Below the pieces are notes generated by a model. The model was not told where the DNA came from. It saw only the letters and a program-made list of their open reading frames with translations, and searched no databases. Of a DNA stretch of 64,000 nt, positions 1,157 to 9,508 are shown piece after piece. Made by a program: the position numbers and the translations under genes. Location of the stretch: positions 1,152,001 to 1,216,000 of the forward strand of contig OZ251518.1 in the NCBI GenBank assembly GCA_965242965.1. Direction: 5' to 3'. Origin of the DNA: Candidatus Poribacteria bacterium. Lineage in GTDB: Bacteria; Poribacteria; WGA-4E; WGA-3G. How positions within the stretch are numbered: position 1 is the first letter of the stretch; each line of letters starts with the position of its first letter.

Positions 1157-2293
1157 ATGAATGGACTGATTCAGCGCATCCAAGAATTTCTAAACAGGCC
1201 TGCTTTACCCCTAAGCGGCAGAGAAGTCAGTTTTTTTGAACTTATCACGTTAATCGGGACGTTAGCGGTGTTCGTCGCAGTCGCGGGCTTTTTGCGTCGG
1301 TGGCTCAGTCGTCTCTTTAGCAAGTTGCGGATGCCGGAGAGCACGCAGAACCGTCTGCTCGCGCTTTCGTTCCTCATCGTTATGATTGTCGGTTTCGTGG
1401 TAGGGTTAGAGGTTGCGAACATTAGCATTGGGCAGCTGGAAGCACTCCTAGCCTACGAAATTCCGATTGGAAAAGATAGCAGCTTAGCGGTGGCGAAACT
1501 TTTTTACGGTTGCGTCATCGTCTTTGTCGTGTTTATCCTCTCGAAATACGCGCAGTGGGTTATCCGCGAACAGGTTTTACAAGCGTTCACTATTGATGAG
1601 CACACGCAGTTTATCCTGCTCCGTTTCTTCCACATCGGTGTTGTCGCTATCGGCGTGCTGGTCAGCCTGAATGCCATCGGGTTAGGTTTGACGAACCTCA
1701 CCGTTATCCTGGGTGGCTTGAGTATCGGTATCGGGTTCGGGTTACAGAATATTGCGGCAAACATCTTGTCGGGCATTATCCTGATTTTTGAACGTCCGAT
1801 TAAAATCGGGGATTTGGTGGAAATCATGGATGCGAATATCTTCGGCAGAGTGAATGCAATCAATCTCCGTTCCACCGTTATCGTCGCGCTCGATGAGAAG
1901 GAGATTATCGTGCCGAATTCGCAGCTCGTTACGGAGCCGGTGCATAACCTAACGCACTATAACAGACGTTTTCGGGTGCGGGTTCCGGTGGGTGTCGCCT
2001 ATAGTTCGGACGTGCAGCTTGTGAAAAAGGCGTTATTGGAGGTGGCGCATGCGCATCCGGATGTGATTAAGGCACCTATCCGGGGACAGAAGAACGTCAC
2101 TGCGCCTTTCGTTCGCTTTATTCATTTCGGGGAGTCGTCGTTAGACTTCGAGTTGCTGGCGTGGATACCTGACTCTTTTCAGCGGTTCGATATTGCGAGT
2201 GACTTGCATTTCATGATTTGGGAGAAGTTTAAGGAATGCGAGATTACTATCCCGTTTCCGCAGCGGGATGTGCATCATTTTTATTCGGAGTAA
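1157..2293 (+). CDS. mscS: Small-conductance mechanosensitive channel (MscS family)
   Basis: GIGFGLQNIAANILSGIILIFERPIKIGDLV and IPFPQRDVH motifs; several N-terminal TM helices. Confidence 0.9.
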   Translation: MNGLIQRIQEFLNRPALPLSGREVSFFELITLIGTLAVFVAVAGFLRRWLSRLFSKLRMPESTQNRLLALSFLIVMIVGFVVGLEVANISIGQLEALLAYEIPIGKDSSLAVAKLFYGCVIVFVVFILSKYAQWVIREQVLQAFTIDEHTQFILLRFFHIGVVAIGVLVSLNAIGLGLTNLTVILGGLSIGIGFGLQNIAANILSGIILIFERPIKIGDLVEIMDANIFGRVNAINLRSTVIVALDEKEIIVPNSQLVTEPVHNLTHYNRRFRVRVPVGVAYSSDVQLVKKALLEVAHAHPDVIKAPIRGQKNVTAPFVRFIHFGESSLDFELLAWIPDSFQRFDIASDLHFMIWEKFKECEITIPFPQRDVHHFYSE

Positions 2294-2350
2294 CGAAAAA
2301 GCAGGCAGAATTTGGTATTCTGCCTGCTTCGCCGTTATACCCAATTAACC

Positions 2351-2719
2351 TGACGGTGTTTCATAAATCGCTCAACGTTGCGGTGAAACCCCTCGCCATG
2401 CGTTTTGCTATCAGACCTCCTCACCTCTGTAGGTCAGGCTCGCCCGATCTTGACCCGTTTGTGATCAGGCGAGCACAAACTACAGAAGGGGTGGCGCGCG
2501 CGGAGAAAAACGCCTCCCTCTACCGTAGGGCGAGGGCCTGTCCCTCGCCATCGTCCGCGCACGCCAACGCTCGCGGGGGAAACCCGCTCGGATGCGCGGA
2601 TGGCATCCGAGGGCCCCGCGCTACGGGAAAAATCGAGACCAGGAGGTCGCTCCTCCCCGAAGAATCGAGACCGGGAGGTCGCTCCTACCGGGAAACCATT
2701 GAGATATGAAATACCCTCA
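2351..2719. mobile_element. MITE/REPIN-like composite element with inverted ends
   Basis: TGACGGTGTTTCATAAAT ... ATATGAAATACCCTCA, flanked on both sides by AATTAACC; internal GTAG hairpins. Confidence 0.75.
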
Positions 2720-2783
2720 ATTAACCTGAGTCGTTCCAGATTGCCAGAGCCCGAAAATCATGGGCAATGTGAGGCGGCGCGCT

Positions 2784-3005
2784 TCATTTCCGGACTGCGT
2801 CTAATACGCGTTGAAAGTCTTCCACGGAATCTGCCAGGACCGCGGCACGCAGCAATTCGTCAAGTCCTTGTGCGTCATCAACGGTGTCCAACGTTGACTG
2901 AAAATCGCGCGTGGCATCCGGATGCAATCGGAGCTCCAACACCCTAAGGATGGATTCACGGCGAGCTGCGGCACCAAAGTATTGGATGATAGGTGCTTCG
3001 TGCAT
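2784..3005 (-). CDS. Stand-alone copy of the Rpn C-terminal module (putative small antitoxin), 73 aa
   Basis: GGAGGCTAACC-ATG start; tail nearly identical to the C-terminus of 3346-4236. Confidence 0.75.
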   Translation of the reverse strand: MHEAPIIQYFGAAARRESILRVLELRLHPDATRDFQSTLDTVDDAQGLDELLRAAVLADSVEDFQRVLDAVRK

Positions 3006-3063
3006 GGTTAGCCTCCAAAGGTAAAGACGAGGCAGCGCGGTTGAGAACCGCGCCCTCGGTGAA

Positions 3064-3309
3064 TCAGCTGTCGTTCGCCGCCAAAGCGCGCCGGAAGTCT
3101 TCGACAGAATCCGCTAGAACCGCTGCATGATGCAACTGCTTGAGGCGTTGCAAGTCGTCAATAGCCTCCAGCGTTGGTTGAAAATCGCGTGCTATGTCCG
3201 GATGCAACCGAAGTTCCAATACTTCCAGGATATGTTCACGCGAATTCTGTCGCCGTGCTTCCGCAGTGGCTTGCTCTGTCCAATATTGGACAATCGGAAT
3301 TTCGTGCAT
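3064..3309 (-). CDS. Stand-alone copy of the Rpn C-terminal module (putative small antitoxin), 81 aa
   Basis: GGAGGCTAACC-ATG at 3309; starts MHEIPIVQYWTEQATAEARR exactly as the internal module of Rpn. Confidence 0.75.
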   Translation of the reverse strand: MHEIPIVQYWTEQATAEARRQNSREHILEVLELRLHPDIARDFQPTLEAIDDLQRLKQLHHAAVLADSVEDFRRALAANDS

Positions 3310-3345
3310 GGTTAGCCTCCAGTGGGACACGCGAGGCGGCGCGCT

Positions 3346-4236
3346 TCATTTCCGGACTGCGTCTAATACGCGTTGAAAGTCTTCCACGGAATCTGCGAGG
3401 GCCGCGGCACGCAGCAATTCGTCAAGTCCTTGTGCGTCATCAACGGTATCCAACGTTGGCTGAAAATCGCGCGTTGCATCCGTATGCAACCGGCACTCTA
3501 ACACCCTAAGGATGTCTTCACGCGATTTTTCCCGCCGTGCTTCCGCAGTGGCTTGCTCTGTCCAGTATTGGACGATAGGGATTTCGTGCATGGTCAGCCT
3601 CCTTACGATATCCAAAATGTGTTCCTTCTCAAAAATTACATTGCCCAACACAGCCATCACCCCGAGGGTATCCAGCTTATTCGGCATGTCGATGTTATCC
3701 GCGGTTTGAATGCACCGCTGCAACCATTCGTCCGCATCCACGCCTACAGGCGGCTTCATCAGCGGTGTGAACGGTAGCAAACCGGTAGGCTGCGCGTCAA
3801 GGACCGCCTGTCCATCCATCTCCGCGAGACGGATGACTTGGTATTCCACCAAAATCTCGTTCCCAGGGATCTGCTGTTGAAACTTCCCCGGGTCATTTCG
3901 GCCGGCATCCGGCCGCAGATAAATCACGTTGGCGTAGACATCCATCCGGTATGTTCTCACCAACCAGATGATATAACTCGCCATCCGGAGTGCCATCGAC
4001 GGGTCAAAACTATCGGTAGTTTGAAACTCAAAATGCACCAAGACATATTTGCCGCGGAGTTTCACCTTGATCAGGACATCCGCCTGACGCATTTCAACGG
4101 TAGGTTGCTCCGGCGTGATGAGCTCCACGTCGGTAAATTCTACCCCGGTCATACGCCGTAGGTTGAAGCAGAACGCCACGAAATCTCTGGGGTTCTGCTG
4201 CACTAATCTTTTCGATGCGCTGTCAAAAGATGCCAT
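3346..4236 (-). CDS. Rpn/YhgA-like PD-(D/E)XK nuclease
   Basis: FDSASKRL, RQADVLI, VHFEFQT and MALRMASY motifs; internal TAAGGAGG-6nt-ATG at 3591. Confidence 0.85.
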   Translation of the reverse strand: MASFDSASKRLVQQNPRDFVAFCFNLRRMTGVEFTDVELITPEQPTVEMRQADVLIKVKLRGKYVLVHFEFQTTDSFDPSMALRMASYIIWLVRTYRMDVYANVIYLRPDAGRNDPGKFQQQIPGNEILVEYQVIRLAEMDGQAVLDAQPTGLLPFTPLMKPPVGVDADEWLQRCIQTADNIDMPNKLDTLGVMAVLGNVIFEKEHILDIVRRLTMHEIPIVQYWTEQATAEARREKSREDILRVLECRLHTDATRDFQPTLDTVDDAQGLDELLRAAALADSVEDFQRVLDAVRK

Positions 4237-4305
4237 TCAATCTCCTTTTTCATTATTTGATTTGATAAACGCCTGACTCTGAAATGAGAGCGGCTTCTGA
4301 TAGAT

Positions 4306-4335
4306 ATTATACCTCATTCAAAACAAATTTGTCAA
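4306..4335 (-). promoter_or_regulatory. sigma70-type promoter of the rpn gene
   Basis: TTGACA-18 nt-TATAAT on the minus strand. Confidence 0.75.
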
Positions 4336-4350
4336 GGCAAAATGTTTTTT

Positions 4351-5001
4351 CTACGTGGCATTGTGATGCCGAATGACATCGCCTTTTACGAGATAATACA
4401 CTTCTTCCCCGATATTCGCTGATAGATCGCCCACCCGCTCTAAATGCCGGAAGAGAAGCAGAATGCTGATGCCCGGCGGGATCAACTCCGGACGTTCGTT
4501 GAGGACAGCGTAGATTTCGGGGAGGAGGCGCGCATAGATGGCATCAACTTTCTCGTCGCGTCCCCGGATTTCTCGCGCTAATTCCGCATTCCGATTGACA
4601 AACGCGTCCAGCGCATCTTTTACCATCTCCTGAATAAAGCACGCGATATCCGGCAGATCGACGAACCGCGGGAAAGGTGGGTATTCTAACAATTCAAGGC
4701 TCCGTTTGGCAATGGAGACGCTTTTATCCGCCAACCGTTCAATATGCCGACAGATTTTCATCGCCGCTGTCAGGAAGCGGAGCTCAAACGCCACCGGTTG
4801 ATGGAGCGCGATGCGCTGAATACACGTAGCCTCGATCTGGTTTTCAAACGAGTCGACTGTATCATCGGTTGCGATGACGGCACGCGCGAGAACCTCATCC
4901 CGCGTCAAGACTGACTCAACGGCTTGGTGTAGCATCCGTTCGGCAATCCCAGCCATTTCTAAAAGTTGGTGCTGTAGCACCTTGAGTTCCATTTCTAACA
5001 T
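4351..5001 (-). CDS. phoU: Phosphate signalling protein PhoU
   Basis: Two PhoU repeats (DDTVDSFE...QPVAFELR; LERVGDLSANIGE); last gene of the pst cluster. Start chosen at ATG 5001. Confidence 0.9.
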   Translation of the reverse strand: MLEMELKVLQHQLLEMAGIAERMLHQAVESVLTRDEVLARAVIATDDTVDSFENQIEATCIQRIALHQPVAFELRFLTAAMKICRHIERLADKSVSIAKRSLELLEYPPFPRFVDLPDIACFIQEMVKDALDAFVNRNAELAREIRGRDEKVDAIYARLLPEIYAVLNERPELIPPGISILLLFRHLERVGDLSANIGEEVYYLVKGDVIRHHNAT

Positions 5002-5094
5002 TTTTGTTGTTTGCAAGGCGTTCGGCGGGCATCTCTTGTGCAAAGACAGGTGTCACGCCAGTGCCGCTATTGACATCCTTCGCGCACTCCAACG

Positions 5095-5376
5095 CTCGCG
5101 GGGGACAGGCCCCCGCACTACGAAAAAAAACGCCACTCCCTCACCGTAGGGCGAGGGCCTGTCCCTCGCCATCGTCCGCGCACTCTAACGCTCGCGGGGG
5201 ACAGGCCCCCGCACTACGATGAAAAATACGCCACTCCCTCACCGTAGGGCGAGGGCCTGTCCCTCGCCATCCCTCGCGTAATCCAACGCTCGCGGGGGAC
5301 AGGCCCCCGCGCTACGGGCACATCGAGACCAGGAGGTCTCTCCTACCCGAAGAAATCGAGATATGAAACACGCTCA
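5095..5376. repeat. Tandem REP-like hairpin cluster with one terminal repeat
   Basis: Alternating REP families repeated three times; TATGAAACACGCTCA next to the pstB stop. Confidence 0.85.
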
Positions 5377-5377
5377 A

Positions 5378-6154
5378 TTAACCGAGTCTGCCTGTCACAT
5401 ACTGCTCTGTCCTGATATCTTGTGGGTTCGTGAATATCTTTTCTGTCGTGCCAAACTCGATGAGTTCGCCGCAATAGAGAAACCCCGCGTAATCGGAGAC
5501 GCGCGCCGCTTGCCGCCGCTTGTTAGTCACAAAGATAAGCGTGTGATGCTGCTTGAGATTCCGAACGAGTGCCTCAATCTTAGGCGTTTCCATCGGATCG
5601 AGCGCGCCACACGGTTCATCGAAAATAAGCACCTCGGGGCCTATCGCTAAAGCACGGGCGATGCAGAGCCGCTGCTGCTGCCCAATAGAGAGCTGCTCAG
5701 GCGTTTCGTTCAGGATGTTCGCCACTTCGTCCCACAAGTTTACGCTGCGGAGGCTTTTCTCCACGATGGCATCAAGTTGCGCGGACTGGGTTACGCCTGA
5801 AATCCGCGCGCCATAGGCGACGTTCTCATAAACGGATTTGTGGAACAGCACCGGTTCCCCAAAAACCATCCCGATCCGCTTCCGAATTGCGGTGGCATCC
5901 ACCCGCGACGCGTAAAGGTCTTGTCCATTAAAAAGAATTTCGCCGGTGAGTCTGAAACCCGGCGTGAAGTCGTTTAAACGGTTGAGACACCGCACGAGAG
6001 TGCTTTTGCCGCAGTTCGAGGGCCCGATGAGCGCCGTGACCTGCCGCCGTTTCACTTCAAAGGAGAGCGCGCGCAAAATCGGCCCTTGTTCGCCGTACCA
6101 TACACTGAGGTTACGGACAGTTAAAATAGGCGCGTCTAACGCGTTTTTGTCCAT
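5378..6154 (-). CDS. pstB: PstB-like ABC ATPase, degenerate (LSIGQ signature, H-loop His to Asn)
   Basis: GPSNCGKS, RCLNRLND, DEPCGALDP and FTNPQDIRTEQYVTGRLG. Confidence 0.85.
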   Translation of the reverse strand: MDKNALDAPILTVRNLSVWYGEQGPILRALSFEVKRRQVTALIGPSNCGKSTLVRCLNRLNDFTPGFRLTGEILFNGQDLYASRVDATAIRKRIGMVFGEPVLFHKSVYENVAYGARISGVTQSAQLDAIVEKSLRSVNLWDEVANILNETPEQLSIGQQQRLCIARALAIGPEVLIFDEPCGALDPMETPKIEALVRNLKQHHTLIFVTNKRRQAARVSDYAGFLYCGELIEFGTTEKIFTNPQDIRTEQYVTGRLG

Positions 6155-6231
6155 TTTTGTCCTCTCTGTCCTCTCTAGCCTCTCTAGCCTCGCGGCCGTT
6201 TAGCGCTGCTGACTGAGCAGGCTCGTTACGG

Positions 6232-6876
6232 CTAGAGCCGTGAACGCCGCTCCAGAATATTGGCAAGCACACTGAAGCCCACCGCGCACGCTAAAATCAC
6301 GCCGATTTGACTCATCGGGACACTCTCCATGCGCGCAATCGGAACCGCATAGACGACAATCAGCAAGCCTGCAACAGCGAACGCTCGCGACAGGGCCCGA
6401 CAACTGCCTGCGAGAATATCGGGTAAAGCGAGGGGCAAGACGTGGTCTGACAGAACACGCCATCGGTTTGTGCCGAGGGCATACGCCGCCTCTCTGAGCG
6501 GTAAGTCAACGCGCTGCACCGCCCGCTGCGTAGACTGAATTGCGAGCGGCATAACAAGCAACACGAACGCTAACGCTTGCACACTAAATCCGACATCCCG
6601 AAACACGAAAACCTCAAGTGCCAACAGCCCGTATAAAAGCGATGGAATCCCGGCGAAGATGGCAACTTTACCCTCAACCACACGCCGAATCCAATGCGTT
6701 TTCGGCAGCCATTCCGCTATATAAATGCCCCCTATCACCCCGAGAAAAAGCGAGAGCAGGACGACAGGTAGCATCAGCGTGAGATTTCCTTGCAGGCCGG
6801 AAAGCGTGTTTGATGCTTGCATGTTTCTTCTGAGGCTGAGAGAAATCTGATGCGCTCTTTGTTGAACGTTACCCAT
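6232..6876 (-). CDS. Short PstA-like ABC permease
   Basis: AGIPSLLYGL and EAAYALG (EAA loop); the ATG overlaps the upstream pstB stop. Start uncertain. Confidence 0.75.
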   Translation of the reverse strand: MGNVQQRAHQISLSLRRNMQASNTLSGLQGNLTLMLPVVLLSLFLGVIGGIYIAEWLPKTHWIRRVVEGKVAIFAGIPSLLYGLLALEVFVFRDVGFSVQALAFVLLVMPLAIQSTQRAVQRVDLPLREAAYALGTNRWRVLSDHVLPLALPDILAGSCRALSRAFAVAGLLIVVYAVPIARMESVPMSQIGVILACAVGFSVLANILERRSRL

Positions 6877-7657
6877 AACGCATTTGCACATAGTCGGCGG
6901 TTTTCGGATGCGCCGGCGTTTGAAATAGGGCCTGCGTCTCTCGGTGTTCGATCAGTTCGCCGAGGAACATGAAAATGCACTCATCGCTGACGCGGCGCGC
7001 TTGCGCCATGTTATGCGTCACGACAAGGAAGGTATACGCGCCGGACAGCACCGACATCAATTCTTCGACAGCCAGCGTGCCTTTTGCATCCAGCGCAGAG
7101 CACGGTTCGTCCATCAAAATAATCTTCGGTTTGAGCGGCAACAACCGCGCGATGCACAACTTCTGCTGCTGCTCCAATTGCAGCGACGTTGCGCGCGACT
7201 TCAACTTATCCTTCAAATCTTCCCATAGAAAGACAGCTCTAAGTGCTTCTTCGACAATCTCGTCCGCCTCGCTGCGCGACAAACTCCGCAGCGGCGAGTG
7301 AATACGCAACCCGAACAAGATGTTCTCGTAAACCGAAATCGGCAACGGGTTCGGACGCTGGAATACCATGCCGACTGTTTTGCGAAGTTCCGGCAACGAG
7401 ACATCCGCATCGTAGATGTTTTTCCCTAACACCTTAATCTCACCTGTGGTGGTGACATTACCGTAACGTTCGTTCACACGATTGAAGCAGCGCAGCAGCG
7501 TCGATTTCCCACATCCAGAAGGACCGATTAGCGAGGTAATTTGTCCATCTGGAATCTTTACGTTGACATCAATGAGTGCCTGAAAATCGCCATACCAAAG
7601 GTTGAGGTCCGCTGCCTCAATACTATTTTTTTTACTCGCAAGGCGTTCGCTTGTCAT
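6869..7657 (-). CDS. pstB: Phosphate ABC ATPase with degenerate signature (LQLEQ)
   Basis: GPSGCGKS, GMVFQRPNP, MDEPCSALD and VTHN. Confidence 0.9.
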   Translation of the reverse strand: MTSERLASKKNSIEAADLNLWYGDFQALIDVNVKIPDGQITSLIGPSGCGKSTLLRCFNRVNERYGNVTTTGEIKVLGKNIYDADVSLPELRKTVGMVFQRPNPLPISVYENILFGLRIHSPLRSLSRSEADEIVEEALRAVFLWEDLKDKLKSRATSLQLEQQQKLCIARLLPLKPKIILMDEPCSALDAKGTLAVEELMSVLSGAYTFLVVTHNMAQARRVSDECIFMFLGELIEHRETQALFQTPAHPKTADYVQMRYG

Positions 7658-7701
7658 GTTAGTTCAATGCCTTTTTCTACGTTCTCACGGCAGGACAGAA
7701 G

Positions 7702-8460
7702 TTATCCAAAGTTACCCTTGACATAATCGTAGGTGGACTGATTCGCCGGGTTATCGGAGAAAATCGCATCCGTTGCGTCAATTTCAACCAGCTCGCCGTT
7801 GAGAAAAAACGCAGTGCGATTTGCCAACCGTTTTGCCTGCTGCACGAGATTCGTGACGAGCAGAATTGTCATTTCGGCGCGGAGTGTTTTCAGCACATCC
7901 TCAATGCGCATCGTCGTAACCGGATCTACGGCGATAGAGAATTCGTCAAGACATAAAATCTCTGGCTGATGCGACAGCGCGCGGGCTATGGTTAACCGCT
8001 GCTGTTGTCCACCGGAAAGTTTTGTGCCGAGGCTATTGAGCCGGTCCTTCACTTCGTCCCATAAGGCGGCTTGCTGCAGGCATCTCTCAACAATCTCGTC
8101 CAACGCCGATTTCTTGCGAAGTCCAGCGGTGCGCGGTGCGAAGGCGACGTTGTCGTAGATAGACAACGGTAAACCCACCGGCAACGGCAACACCATGCCG
8201 ATGCGTCGACGTAAACTGTAGACATCGCCGATAGTATGGATATCCTCGCTATCAAGTTTCACCGTGCCTTCGACGGTTGTCCCAGGCGTGAACTCCAGCG
8301 TTCTGTTGATAACCTTCAACAGCGTCGTTTTCCCAGATTGCGCCGGTCCGATGATACTGAGGATTTCGTTTTCGTAGACATCAAACGAAACGCCGTTCAA
8401 GGCGAGTTTATTGCCGTAGCGCACGCTGAGTTCAGATACCTCAATCTTCTTCTTTTCCAT
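7702..8460 (-). CDS. pstB: Phosphate ABC ATPase with degenerate D/H loops
   Basis: GPAQSGKT, LSGGQQQ, LDEFSIAVD and VTNL. Confidence 0.85.
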   Translation of the reverse strand: MEKKKIEVSELSVRYGNKLALNGVSFDVYENEILSIIGPAQSGKTTLLKVINRTLEFTPGTTVEGTVKLDSEDIHTIGDVYSLRRRIGMVLPLPVGLPLSIYDNVAFAPRTAGLRKKSALDEIVERCLQQAALWDEVKDRLNSLGTKLSGGQQQRLTIARALSHQPEILCLDEFSIAVDPVTTMRIEDVLKTLRAEMTILLVTNLVQQAKRLANRTAFFLNGELVEIDATDAIFSDNPANQSTYDYVKGNFG

Positions 8461-9166: not shown

Positions 9167-9224
9167 AGTTTTGTCTGCATACACTATCGGGTGCTTTTGC
9201 GGGTGGCTGTCAGATTGCGTCACC

Positions 9225-9508
9225 CCTATAGGGCAGGAGCACCTGCTCCTGACCCGTTCGGGATCAGGCACTCCCGAACTACAGAGGTGGACCCGATACC
9301 TTCCGGTAGGAGAGACCGGGAGGGCTCTCCTACCACAGCGCATCGAGACCAGGAGGTCTCTCCTACCGGCAATTCCCCATTTTTCACCGTAGCGCGGGGG
9401 CCTGTCCCCCGCGATCTCCATTGGCAAGTTATGTTTTTAGGTCCTACGGACCTGAAGAGACGTTTTTCCGTAGCGCGAGGCATGGCGAGGGACAGGCCCT
9501 CGCCCTAC
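9225..9508. repeat. REP-like cluster between the two K+ channel genes
   Basis: Several GTAG-hairpin families; one GTAG provides the TAG stop of 9505-9837. Confidence 0.85.

Follow-up and report, generated by a model that had tools for sequence, protein, structure and literature searches.

A putative divergent Rpn-like locus with tandem copies of its own C-terminal module in Candidatus Poribacteria

The locus and its three modules

The locus described here lies in a stretch of 64,000 nucleotides (nt) from a Candidatus Poribacteria bacterium (GCA_965242965.1, contig OZ251518.1, positions 1,152,001-1,216,000, forward strand), which we call the window and whose own numbering is used below. Between the genes mscS and phoU the window holds a gene for a protein of 296 amino acids (aa) that resembles the toxin RpnL, followed on the same strand by two free copies of the gene's own 3' end. 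A first-pass annotation, made from the sequence alone, had described an Rpn nuclease with an internal start and an array of shuffled, antitoxin-like cassettes behind it, and it had placed the reading frames, the internal Shine-Dalgarno (SD) sequence, the 6-nt gap, the ATG at 3591 and both free copies correctly. The C-terminal end of the long open reading frame (ORF) is referred to as the resident module, and the copies 2 and 3 of that annotation are called cassette 1 and cassette 2. The genome of the window is G000; G001 and G002 are two genomes of other species in the same genus. The features of the locus are the following.

4335..4306, minus strand: sigma-70-type promoter-like site TTGACA-18-TATAAT upstream of the long ORF, called from the consensus match alone (12 of 12 positions)
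4236..3346, minus strand: RpnL-like ORF, 296 aa, with a predicted nuclease domain of the PD-(D/E)XK type at the N-terminus, a helical middle and another helical module at the C-terminus
4021..4080, minus strand: putative catalytic-core stretch D53 ... E70-x-Q72, invariant or nearly so in the family
3598..3604, minus strand: internal SD sequence AAGGAGG, 6 nt ahead of the in-frame ATG at 3591
3591..3346, minus strand: resident RpnS-like module, 81 aa, inside the long ORF; type A head, type B tail
3310..3345, minus strand: short spacer, 36 nt, with GGAGG at 3316-3320; resembles a truncated 58-nt hairpin spacer
3309..3064, minus strand: free cassette 1, 81 aa; head nearly identical to that of the resident module, type A tail
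3006..3063, minus strand: hairpin spacer, 58 nt, with a GC-rich hairpin at about 3029-3057 (-23.5 kcal/mol) and GGAGG at 3012-3016
3005..2784, minus strand: free cassette 2, 73 aa; head divergent and shorter by 8 aa (two 4-aa steps), type B tail
2758..2783, minus strand: remnant of a further short spacer after cassette 2; the homology ends where the next ribosome-binding site would be expected
2294..4350, no strand: the whole inserted segment, between mscS (1157-2293, plus strand) and phoU (5043-4351, minus strand)

In the resident gene TAAGGAGG stands at 3605..3598 (minus strand), and 6 nt further on an in-frame ATG, at 3591, opens the 81-aa module. The DNA homology of all three modules begins at GGAGGCT, at the SD sequence as the first-pass annotation had claimed, and the sequence 5' of this motif is unrelated. 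As proteins, cassette 1 is 70% identical to the resident module and cassette 2 is 84% identical, with an 8-aa gap in the head. The tail of cassette 2 has 94% DNA identity to the resident tail, and the flank after the stop codon, TGAAGCGCGCCGCCTC, is common to the resident gene and cassette 2 only. An independent repeat finder returned three 200-nt copies, at 2761, 3041 and 3323 (92% and 62% identity, spacing 280/282).

The modules are mosaics. In the head (columns 20-100 of a three-way DNA alignment) 11 informative sites join the resident module to cassette 1 and 3 join it to cassette 2, as compared to 6 and 66 sites in the tail and 3' flank (columns 101-305), and this contrast between head and tail is significant (Fisher p=1.5e-7). 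The counts make the resident module a head A joined to a tail B, cassette 1 an A/A and cassette 2 a B/B module. This is the shuffling that had been noticed at first sight, with cassette 1 combining a resident-like head with another tail, and cassette 2 another head with the resident tail and 3' flank.

The spacers follow the tails also elsewhere. A homologous 58-nt hairpin spacer is found after the type-A tails of G001 and G002 and after every unit of a paralogous three-cassette array (R02), which is a regular 292-nt repeat with each unit ending in a 12-bp GC hairpin within the 58-nt spacer. The type-B tail of G001 is likewise trailed by the short spacer of 36 nt. The array ends in an intrinsic terminator in G001 and G002, and in the window there is a cluster of repeats resembling repetitive extragenic palindromes (REP) instead. 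A promoter scan reported no promoter-like sites on the minus strand between 2784 and 3346, and terminator-like sites between the modules were not found. Since the cassettes thus have no promoter-like site of their own and no terminator separates the modules, the array is probably co-transcribed from the promoter of the rpn gene. An internal promoter-like site at 3632..3605 (9 of 12 matches) was rejected; it overlaps the ribosome-binding site, and the 5 sites of this region against 1.5 expected are no better than chance.

The AlphaFold2 model of the long protein (predicted local distance difference test, pLDDT, 88) has an alpha/beta N-terminal domain and a long helix, residues 218-249, directly after M216. 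Cassette 1 is modelled (pLDDT 87.8) as one long helix (6-34) and three short ones. It had been a concern of the first-pass annotation that the cassettes might prove to be assembly artefacts. Arrays are present at the same place in G001 and G002, and contigs of other public runs cross the spacer between cassette 1 and cassette 2 (X6 record 28, covering 2889-3219, and X10 record 13, covering 2922-3177), which shows that the array is not an artefact.

Recurrence, selection and exchange of modules

A six-frame survey of the 5.7-Mb genome with a hidden Markov model revealed 18 complete Rpn-like genes, 13 free C-terminal cassettes directly 3' of 9 of them, and one lone cassette. Three cassettes follow one gene, two genes have two each, and six genes have one. 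All 14 free cassettes are open and have a start codon, and in 13 of them GGAG or GAGG precedes the ATG; the start of the cassette without a ribosome-binding site overlaps the stop codon of its gene by ATGA. Among 68 Poribacteria loci, a biased set as they were fetched with peptides of the window protein, cassettes stand directly downstream in 13 (one cassette in 9, two in 3 and three in 1) and are absent from 55. The number of profile matches in relatives from the same family ranges from 0 to 88 per genome and includes clusters of whole genes and longer partial 3' copies. In the relative with 88 matches about ten whole Rpn-like genes lie within 21 kb (G004:C1:5264713-5285356); others have 0, 3 and 10. 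The expansion of Rpn-like genes is extreme and patchy within this one bacterial family.

Some unusual members of the family were also observed. The lone cassette (G000:C1:21590-21847, or L021:1558-1815, plus strand) encodes 85 aa behind a GGAGG, has at most 52% identity to any resident tail of the genome, and has a sugar-kinase-like gene on one side and a lipoprotein-like gene on the other; its vicinity contains no gene for an Rpn-like nuclease. In the database proteins P0232 (271 aa) and P0233 (275 aa) three RpnS-like modules are fused head to tail in one frame, so that elsewhere cassette arrays may also exist as single polypeptides, if these are not read-through gene calls. At G000:C1:5497278-5497802, 3' of the complete paralogue R17, there is a fragment whose match to the nuclease-domain profile is confined to positions 169-209; it resembles a partial duplicate of the gene's middle and not of its tail.

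The signals for an internal start are kept throughout the family of paralogues. All 18 paralogues have GGAG or GAGG at -14 to -4 relative to the internal start in the alignment, against a background of 0.075 per position, but the paralogues are not independent, and a binomial figure therefore overstates the significance of this conservation. The start codon is ATG in 17 and GTG in one. The residues encoded at the SD sequence vary (RR, SE, EE, PE, KE) though the SD sequence itself is kept. The internal start claimed in the first place is in this sense a conserved sequence signal, and judged from such signals it presumably yields a separate C-terminal protein. What mainly distinguishes the paralogues from one another is runs of 4-aa units (EGRE, QGIE, AQEQ) that begin 11-14 residues after the internal Met and fall within the long first helix (218-249 of the model). 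Free cassettes in the databases vary in the number of whole QGLE units, and in 44 of 51 the length is 73, 77, 81, 85, 89, 93 or 97 aa. The three modules of the window have no obvious run of repeats, and yet their 8-aa difference is located at the repeat spot.

The ratio of non-synonymous to synonymous substitution rates (dN/dS) was calculated by the method of Nei and Gojobori. It is 0.15 between the resident module and cassette 1 (dS 1.36, Fisher p=4.9e-10), 0.20 between cassette 1 and its counterpart in G002 (p=8e-7), and 0.15 between the tail of cassette 2 and the tail, of the same type, of cassette 1 in G001 (p=7e-6). A ratio near 1 had been named beforehand as speaking against the cassettes; the values of 0.15-0.20 mean that they are under purifying selection. 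The retained start signals together with this constraint suggest that the cassettes are translated.

Twelve loci from other genera of this family were compared (L033-L044), and in 9 of them phoU adjoins mscS with a gap of about 15-110 bp. Among the loci examined an Rpn-like gene with cassettes stands between them only in the window, in G001 (L031) and in G002 (L032). The adjacency of the two genes in the relatives implies that the 2.06-kb segment 2294-4350 is an insertion. The first-pass annotation had proposed a comparison of array length among strains, and across the three species both length and order turn out to differ. The window has resident(B), 36-nt spacer, A, 58-nt spacer, B and the spacer remnant; G001 has resident(A), 58-nt spacer, B, 36-nt spacer, A and a terminator; G002, with a single cassette, has resident(A), 58-nt spacer, A' and a terminator. 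The tail types are common to the species, with 81-94% DNA identity among B tails and 81-90% among A tails, and judged from these identities the two tail lineages have persisted since before the split of the three species. The heads, on the other hand, agree within each genome, with 100%, 100% and 90% identity in their first 42 nt.

Close orthologues from the protein database have, between them, each of the three module types as a fused tail. P0001 has an N-terminal domain 96% identical to that of the window protein and a tail 91% identical to the resident module. In P0004 the N-terminal domain is 91% identical, and the tail is closer to cassette 1 (95%) than to the resident module (70%); in P0006 the N-terminal domain is 92% identical, and the tail is closer to cassette 2 (85% as compared to 68%). 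Because every module type is fused in some orthologue and the arrays of the three species are out of phase, tails have been exchanged by recombination, and the proposal of a donor array for swapping the tail is well supported by P0004, P0006 and the phase of the arrays. The simplest reading would be an array of alternating A and B units, the first of them being the gene's own 3' end, that changes by unequal homologous exchange or gene conversion. Short metagenome contigs from mixed strains have the joints 2954->3235, 3177->3551, 2960->3548, 3156->3743 and 3592->3013; we did not use them as proof of polymorphism in the array, since the resident tail of a relative would map in the same way.

No recombinase and no guide element was noticed next to the array. 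The REP-like palindromic repeats (families D2-D7) form intergenic clusters at 540-1100, 2390-2760, 5074-5347 and 9189-9367 of the window, and copies are present also in G001, G002 and G028, a genome of the same order. In four sponge metagenome runs the summed contig depth over 2600-2721 is 100-1000 times that of neighbouring genes. The insertion lies at the end of a phosphate-transport cluster (4351-8460, minus strand) made up of phoU, a permease-like ORF and three PstB-like ATPase ORFs (5378-6154, 6869-7657, 7702-8460). Three ATPase genes in one pst cluster are unusual; the pst names come from reading the translations and not from a family search.

Likeness to Rpn and the role of the array

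According to Zhong 2023 (PMC10400941), an Rpn gene has an internal translation start that yields RpnS, its 4-aa repeats vary from 8-20 residues after the Met and in the long first helix, and RpnS specifically neutralises RpnL. The Rpn biology that the first-pass annotation had given as established agrees with this description.

Comparisons of the long protein with Rpn point in the same direction. D53, E70 and Q72 are invariant in 59 sequences, and among 56 more divergent sequences D53 is still invariant and E70 and Q72 are at least 90% conserved. The profile of these 56 sequences (A5) was aligned by hhalign to RpnA of E. coli K-12 over 85 columns (E=6e-4, probability 28.7%), with the N-terminal D..K motif, D53, E70-x-Q72 and R-M-x-x-Y all in register; a narrower profile of 18 sequences gave E=0.018. 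A search with the profile of the 18 paralogues yields 6541 representative proteins at E<=1e-3, and we scanned 10 of the most distant full-length matches listed with Pfam as possible bridges. Five of these match DUF4351 (PF14261) at E<=0.01 over their last 55 or so residues, one of them over the cut-off, and three match PF04754, again one over the cut-off; two match nothing, and one has only a repeat artefact. The nearest named clusters in the ESM Atlas carry DUF4351, or DUF2887 with DUF4351 under the name Rpn family, which is a lead from language-model features and not an alignment. Several of the weak Foldseek matches of the whole model are to nucleases of the PD-(D/E)XK type, namely PaqCI, Cap4, XisH, an archaeal Holliday-junction resolvase and McrBC. 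With modest confidence we suggest that the nuclease core is homologous to that of Rpn and has kept the catalytic D ... E-x-Q.

The best explanation of the locus, and one we consider fairly probable, is that of a divergent Rpn-type toxin with an intragenic antitoxin, whose antitoxin part has been duplicated in tandem into cassettes that form a recombining array, all of it inserted in an ancestor of the genus. Its entry between phoU and mscS would date to the ancestor of this genus of Candidatus Poribacteria. The long protein would be an RpnL-like PD-(D/E)XK nuclease, and the internal start would make its last 81 residues as an RpnS-like helical protein. If the behaviour of the E. coli proteins can be carried over, this small protein would pair with the same domain of the long protein, hold the nuclease inactive by binding, and so neutralise a toxin that may serve in defence. 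The unit of ribosome-binding site, ATG, 73 to 81 codons, stop and hairpin spacer would then have been duplicated in tandem, which would give two free genes of the rpnS type read from the rpn promoter. The resident 3' end and the cassettes would make up one array that expands, contracts and recombines homologously, and thereby changes the module that is fused to the nuclease.

The lengths of the modules may tell which of them pair. In E. coli, one repeat added to either RpnS or RpnL abolishes neutralisation, and added to both restores it (PMC10400941). Cassette 1 matches the resident module in helix length and is nearly identical to it in the head, and by analogy it would most likely be a second functional antitoxin. 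Being shorter by two 4-aa steps, cassette 2 should fail to pair with the toxin now present if the E. coli rule applies; most likely it would be a stored alternative specificity. The idea of a general rule, that cassette 1 matches the helix length of its resident module, was dropped; it holds in 3 of 3 species at this locus and fails as a rule across the other arrays of the genome. A complex prediction of the long protein with cassette 1 scored 0.36 as compared to 0.00 for the best of three controls, with at least 60% of contacts agreeing between runs and a partner pLDDT of at least 76. In the benchmark of this method 58 of 80 solved complexes and 2 of 110 mismatched pairs passed the mark; only 7 of the 80, but both of the passing mismatches, did so with a score of 0.60 or under. 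We grade the prediction as weak support.

Several results weigh against this explanation, and most of them concern the assignment to Rpn. PF04754 (Transposase_31) matches residues 49-96 of the long protein of the window with 13.3 bits (E=0.062), under the cut-off of 21 bits, and in a scan of the whole genome its best match reached 14.1 bits against the same cut-off, with no match for PF14261. None of the 18 paralogues matches either model at E<=0.01, and NCBIfam and PADLOC have nothing at threshold for the three proteins of the window. The fold search with the whole model returned no Rpn structure; its best match was a type IIS restriction enzyme with E=0.011, and none had E<=0.001. For the model of cassette 1, all Foldseek matches in the PDB had E>1 and were mostly MLLE domains, with no Rpn entry among the matches listed. 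Furthermore, 5 of the 9 arrays have no cassette of the helix length of their resident module, and by the E. coli rule these cassettes would not neutralise their own toxin. As the modules move between the fused and the free state, the low dN/dS may partly reflect the time spent as a fused tail. The translation of the cassettes is presumed from start signals and constraint. The neighbours of the locus are phosphate-transport and channel genes, and not a defence island.

Sequence searches of the PDB, with the single protein and with a profile, also gave nothing relevant and no Rpn chain, and the sole result of the Pfam scan of the 18 paralogues, Yae1_N, was discarded as a spurious match to G-x-x-x repeats. 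As the fold searches were weak or empty, the structural claim is limited to a helical module with a long first helix, and does not extend to the small DUF4351-type helical bundle of the RpnAS crystal structure, in which the first helix is long as well. The direct tests thus fail and the indirect ones modestly succeed, which implies a divergent Rpn-like family that current models do not capture. From the name Rpn nuclease used at first, the remote homology remains (hhalign against RpnA, E=6e-4), while membership by the Pfam cut-off fell short in every scan. It also means that the present Pfam, NCBIfam and PADLOC models miss a large family, the 6541 representatives mentioned above.

The first-pass annotation had proposed, besides the donor array, a library of orphan antitoxins against paralogous or incoming Rpn toxins. 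In such a library the cassettes would mainly neutralise other Rpn toxins, either those of the 17 paralogues or those that come in on mobile elements or phages, as in anti-addiction. When the tails of the paralogues were matched to the cassettes, 3 of the 13 adjacent cassettes matched another paralogue at least as well as their own gene (R14.c1 with R13, 85% at an equal length of 78 aa; R10.c1 and R10.c2 with R12, 68% and 64%). The lone cassette at C1:21590-21847, far from any Rpn gene, would suit such a library, and so would the many cassettes with a repeat number unlike that of their own gene, which fit a non-self target. However, each of the other 10 has its best match in its own upstream gene, identity to a foreign tail is never above 85%, and R13 and R14 with their cassettes look like a duplication of the whole locus and not like matching in trans. 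The heads, which are kept alike with the resident gene within each of the three genomes, also point to self, and we regard the library as unlikely. The cassettes could instead be tolerated and functionless 3' partial duplications, made by the nuclease or by replication slippage. RpnL itself may initiate such duplications (PMC10400941), partial 3' copies of varied extent in the relatives begin at profile positions 129-173, there are frameshifted or internally deleted remnants (P0170; P0231, P0249, P0270), and ypaA of E. coli is a pseudogene in RefSeq. Against such a neutral origin, all 14 free cassettes of the genome are open and 13 have a ribosome-binding site, the protein identity is 70% at a near-saturated dS of 1.36, dN/dS is 0.15-0.20 across species, and the two tail lineages are older than the split of the three species. 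We consider by-products without function decidedly unlikely.

It is also possible to see the array as programmed cassette switching like that of pilin or vls genes, where directed gene conversion is the selected function and the expression of the cassettes is incidental. The alternation of A and B tails with conserved hairpin spacers, the arrays out of phase between species, the occurrence of all three module types as fused tails in orthologues, and alternative module junctions in metagenome contigs from 2 runs of 2 studies (2954->3235, 3177->3551) agree with it. The cassettes are not silent, however, as all have their own ATG and 13 of 14 a ribosome-binding site, no recombinase or guide element was seen beside the array, the junctions come from short mixed-strain contigs that can also be read as resident tails of relatives, and the exchanges seen are those between species or strains, with no evidence of high-frequency switching. 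Programmed switching of this kind is very unlikely in our view. An improbable, more elaborate form of the recombining toxin-antitoxin array is a system dedicated to switching the specificity of a defence toxin, in which two ancient tail alleles, A and B, would be kept alternately, the hairpin spacers would act as sites of recombination or processing, possibly cut by the Rpn nuclease, and unequal exchange would re-fuse the nuclease to another oligomerisation or antitoxin module. If this were true, a lineage could change the partner that controls its toxin, or the phage trigger, with a matching free antitoxin always at hand, and this would be a built-in solution to the diversification of a toxin and an antitoxin that overlap, with the cell surviving the process.

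The explanation that we prefer remains the divergent Rpn-type locus with duplicated antitoxin cassettes. It keeps the tail exchange from the first-pass interpretation, in which the library against other toxins finds weak support, and the kind of cassette has a precedent in ypaA of E. coli.

Comparison with known systems

Free downstream copies of RpnS are known from E. coli, where ypaA follows rpnE and rpnCSs follows rpnC (Zhong 2023, PMC10400941). According to the same paper such copies derive from their own upstream gene, a deletion or a fusion to the N-terminal domain can remove them again, and RpnS genes that stand apart carry the annotation DUF4351. Thus, a single downstream copy, its loss and the fusion of the tail are already in print (PMC10400941). 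We compared rpnE and ypaA of E. coli K-12, and their homology starts at the ribosome-binding site, with 75% identity and a 4-aa indel. RefSeq lists ypaA (L046:7817-8002) as a pseudogene, and a tagged YpaA protein was detected according to Zhong 2023 (PMC10400941); pseudogene annotation of the RefSeq style would hide cassettes like those of Poribacteria.

The Poribacteria locus is like rpnE-ypaA and rpnC-rpnCSs in having a long PD-(D/E)XK-type protein, an internal ribosome-binding site and ATG, and a small C-terminal product, for which there are signals only in our case. With rpnE-ypaA it also shares a free module directly 3' on the same strand, homology from the ribosome-binding site, lengths that differ in 4-aa steps, and cassettes that are mostly closest to their own upstream gene (10 of 13 here). 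It differs from E. coli in that arrays have up to 2-3 cassettes rather than one, with conserved hairpin spacers, and follow 9 of 18 paralogues, that the array of the window alternates two old tail lineages with heads alike within a genome, and that the proteins are too divergent for the PF04754 and PF14261 thresholds.

We found no paper on multi-cassette RpnS arrays in the literature searched, where the supplement to PMC10400941 (Fig. S1B, Fig. S3, Dataset S1) may bear on the matter, nor one on an expansion of Rpn loci in Poribacteria, and none of the papers listed in one of the searches names Poribacteria. Compared with the print we found, the new elements are the arrays of 2-3 cassettes with hairpin spacers, the alternating long-lived tails and the matching of heads within a genome. 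Rpn systems occur widely, and the work on E. coli leaves the questions of how the hypervariable C-terminal region can diversify when toxin and antitoxin share codons, and of what the extra downstream copies do. The Poribacteria lineage is a natural experiment in this respect, with dozens of copies in a genome, up to three cassettes in an array, two long-lived types of tail, matched heads, and each module caught in the fused state. The pairing rule (head and repeat number versus tail), the role as a spare antitoxin and the swapping of tails can all be tested in E. coli. None of this overturns what a specialist would expect; it offers a compact natural system for the diversification of overlapping toxin and antitoxin.

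The named clusters that come nearest by language-model features are those of the cyanobacterial and other proteins named Rpn family, with DUF2887 (PF11103) and DUF4351 (PF14261), and of free-standing DUF4351 proteins. Their length is the same (283-325 aa) and DUF4351 lies at their C-terminus; this likeness is an Atlas lead and not an alignment. One cluster of the DUF2887/DUF4351 type is commonest in Poribacteria. The window proteins, in contrast, reach neither model, and no array structure is on record for the DUF2887/DUF4351 proteins in the literature searched.

Two other systems are similar in arrangement. In the cdiA and rhs systems, which are not homologous to the Rpn-like array, a long gene is followed by an array of promoter-less 3' modules, and recombination at a short homologous junction can put such a module in place of the gene's C-terminal domain. 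There it is the toxin end that is swapped and the cassette brings an immunity gene, whereas here it would be the regulatory or antitoxin end, and the cassette itself is the antitoxin candidate. In pilE/pilS of Neisseria and vlsE of Borrelia, one expressed gene receives segments by gene conversion from partial copies nearby, and becomes a mosaic. The donors of those systems are without start signals of their own. The Poribacteria cassettes, in which no promoter-like site of their own was found, carry their own translation starts, 13 of 14 with a ribosome-binding site, and are under purifying selection as whole small ORFs.

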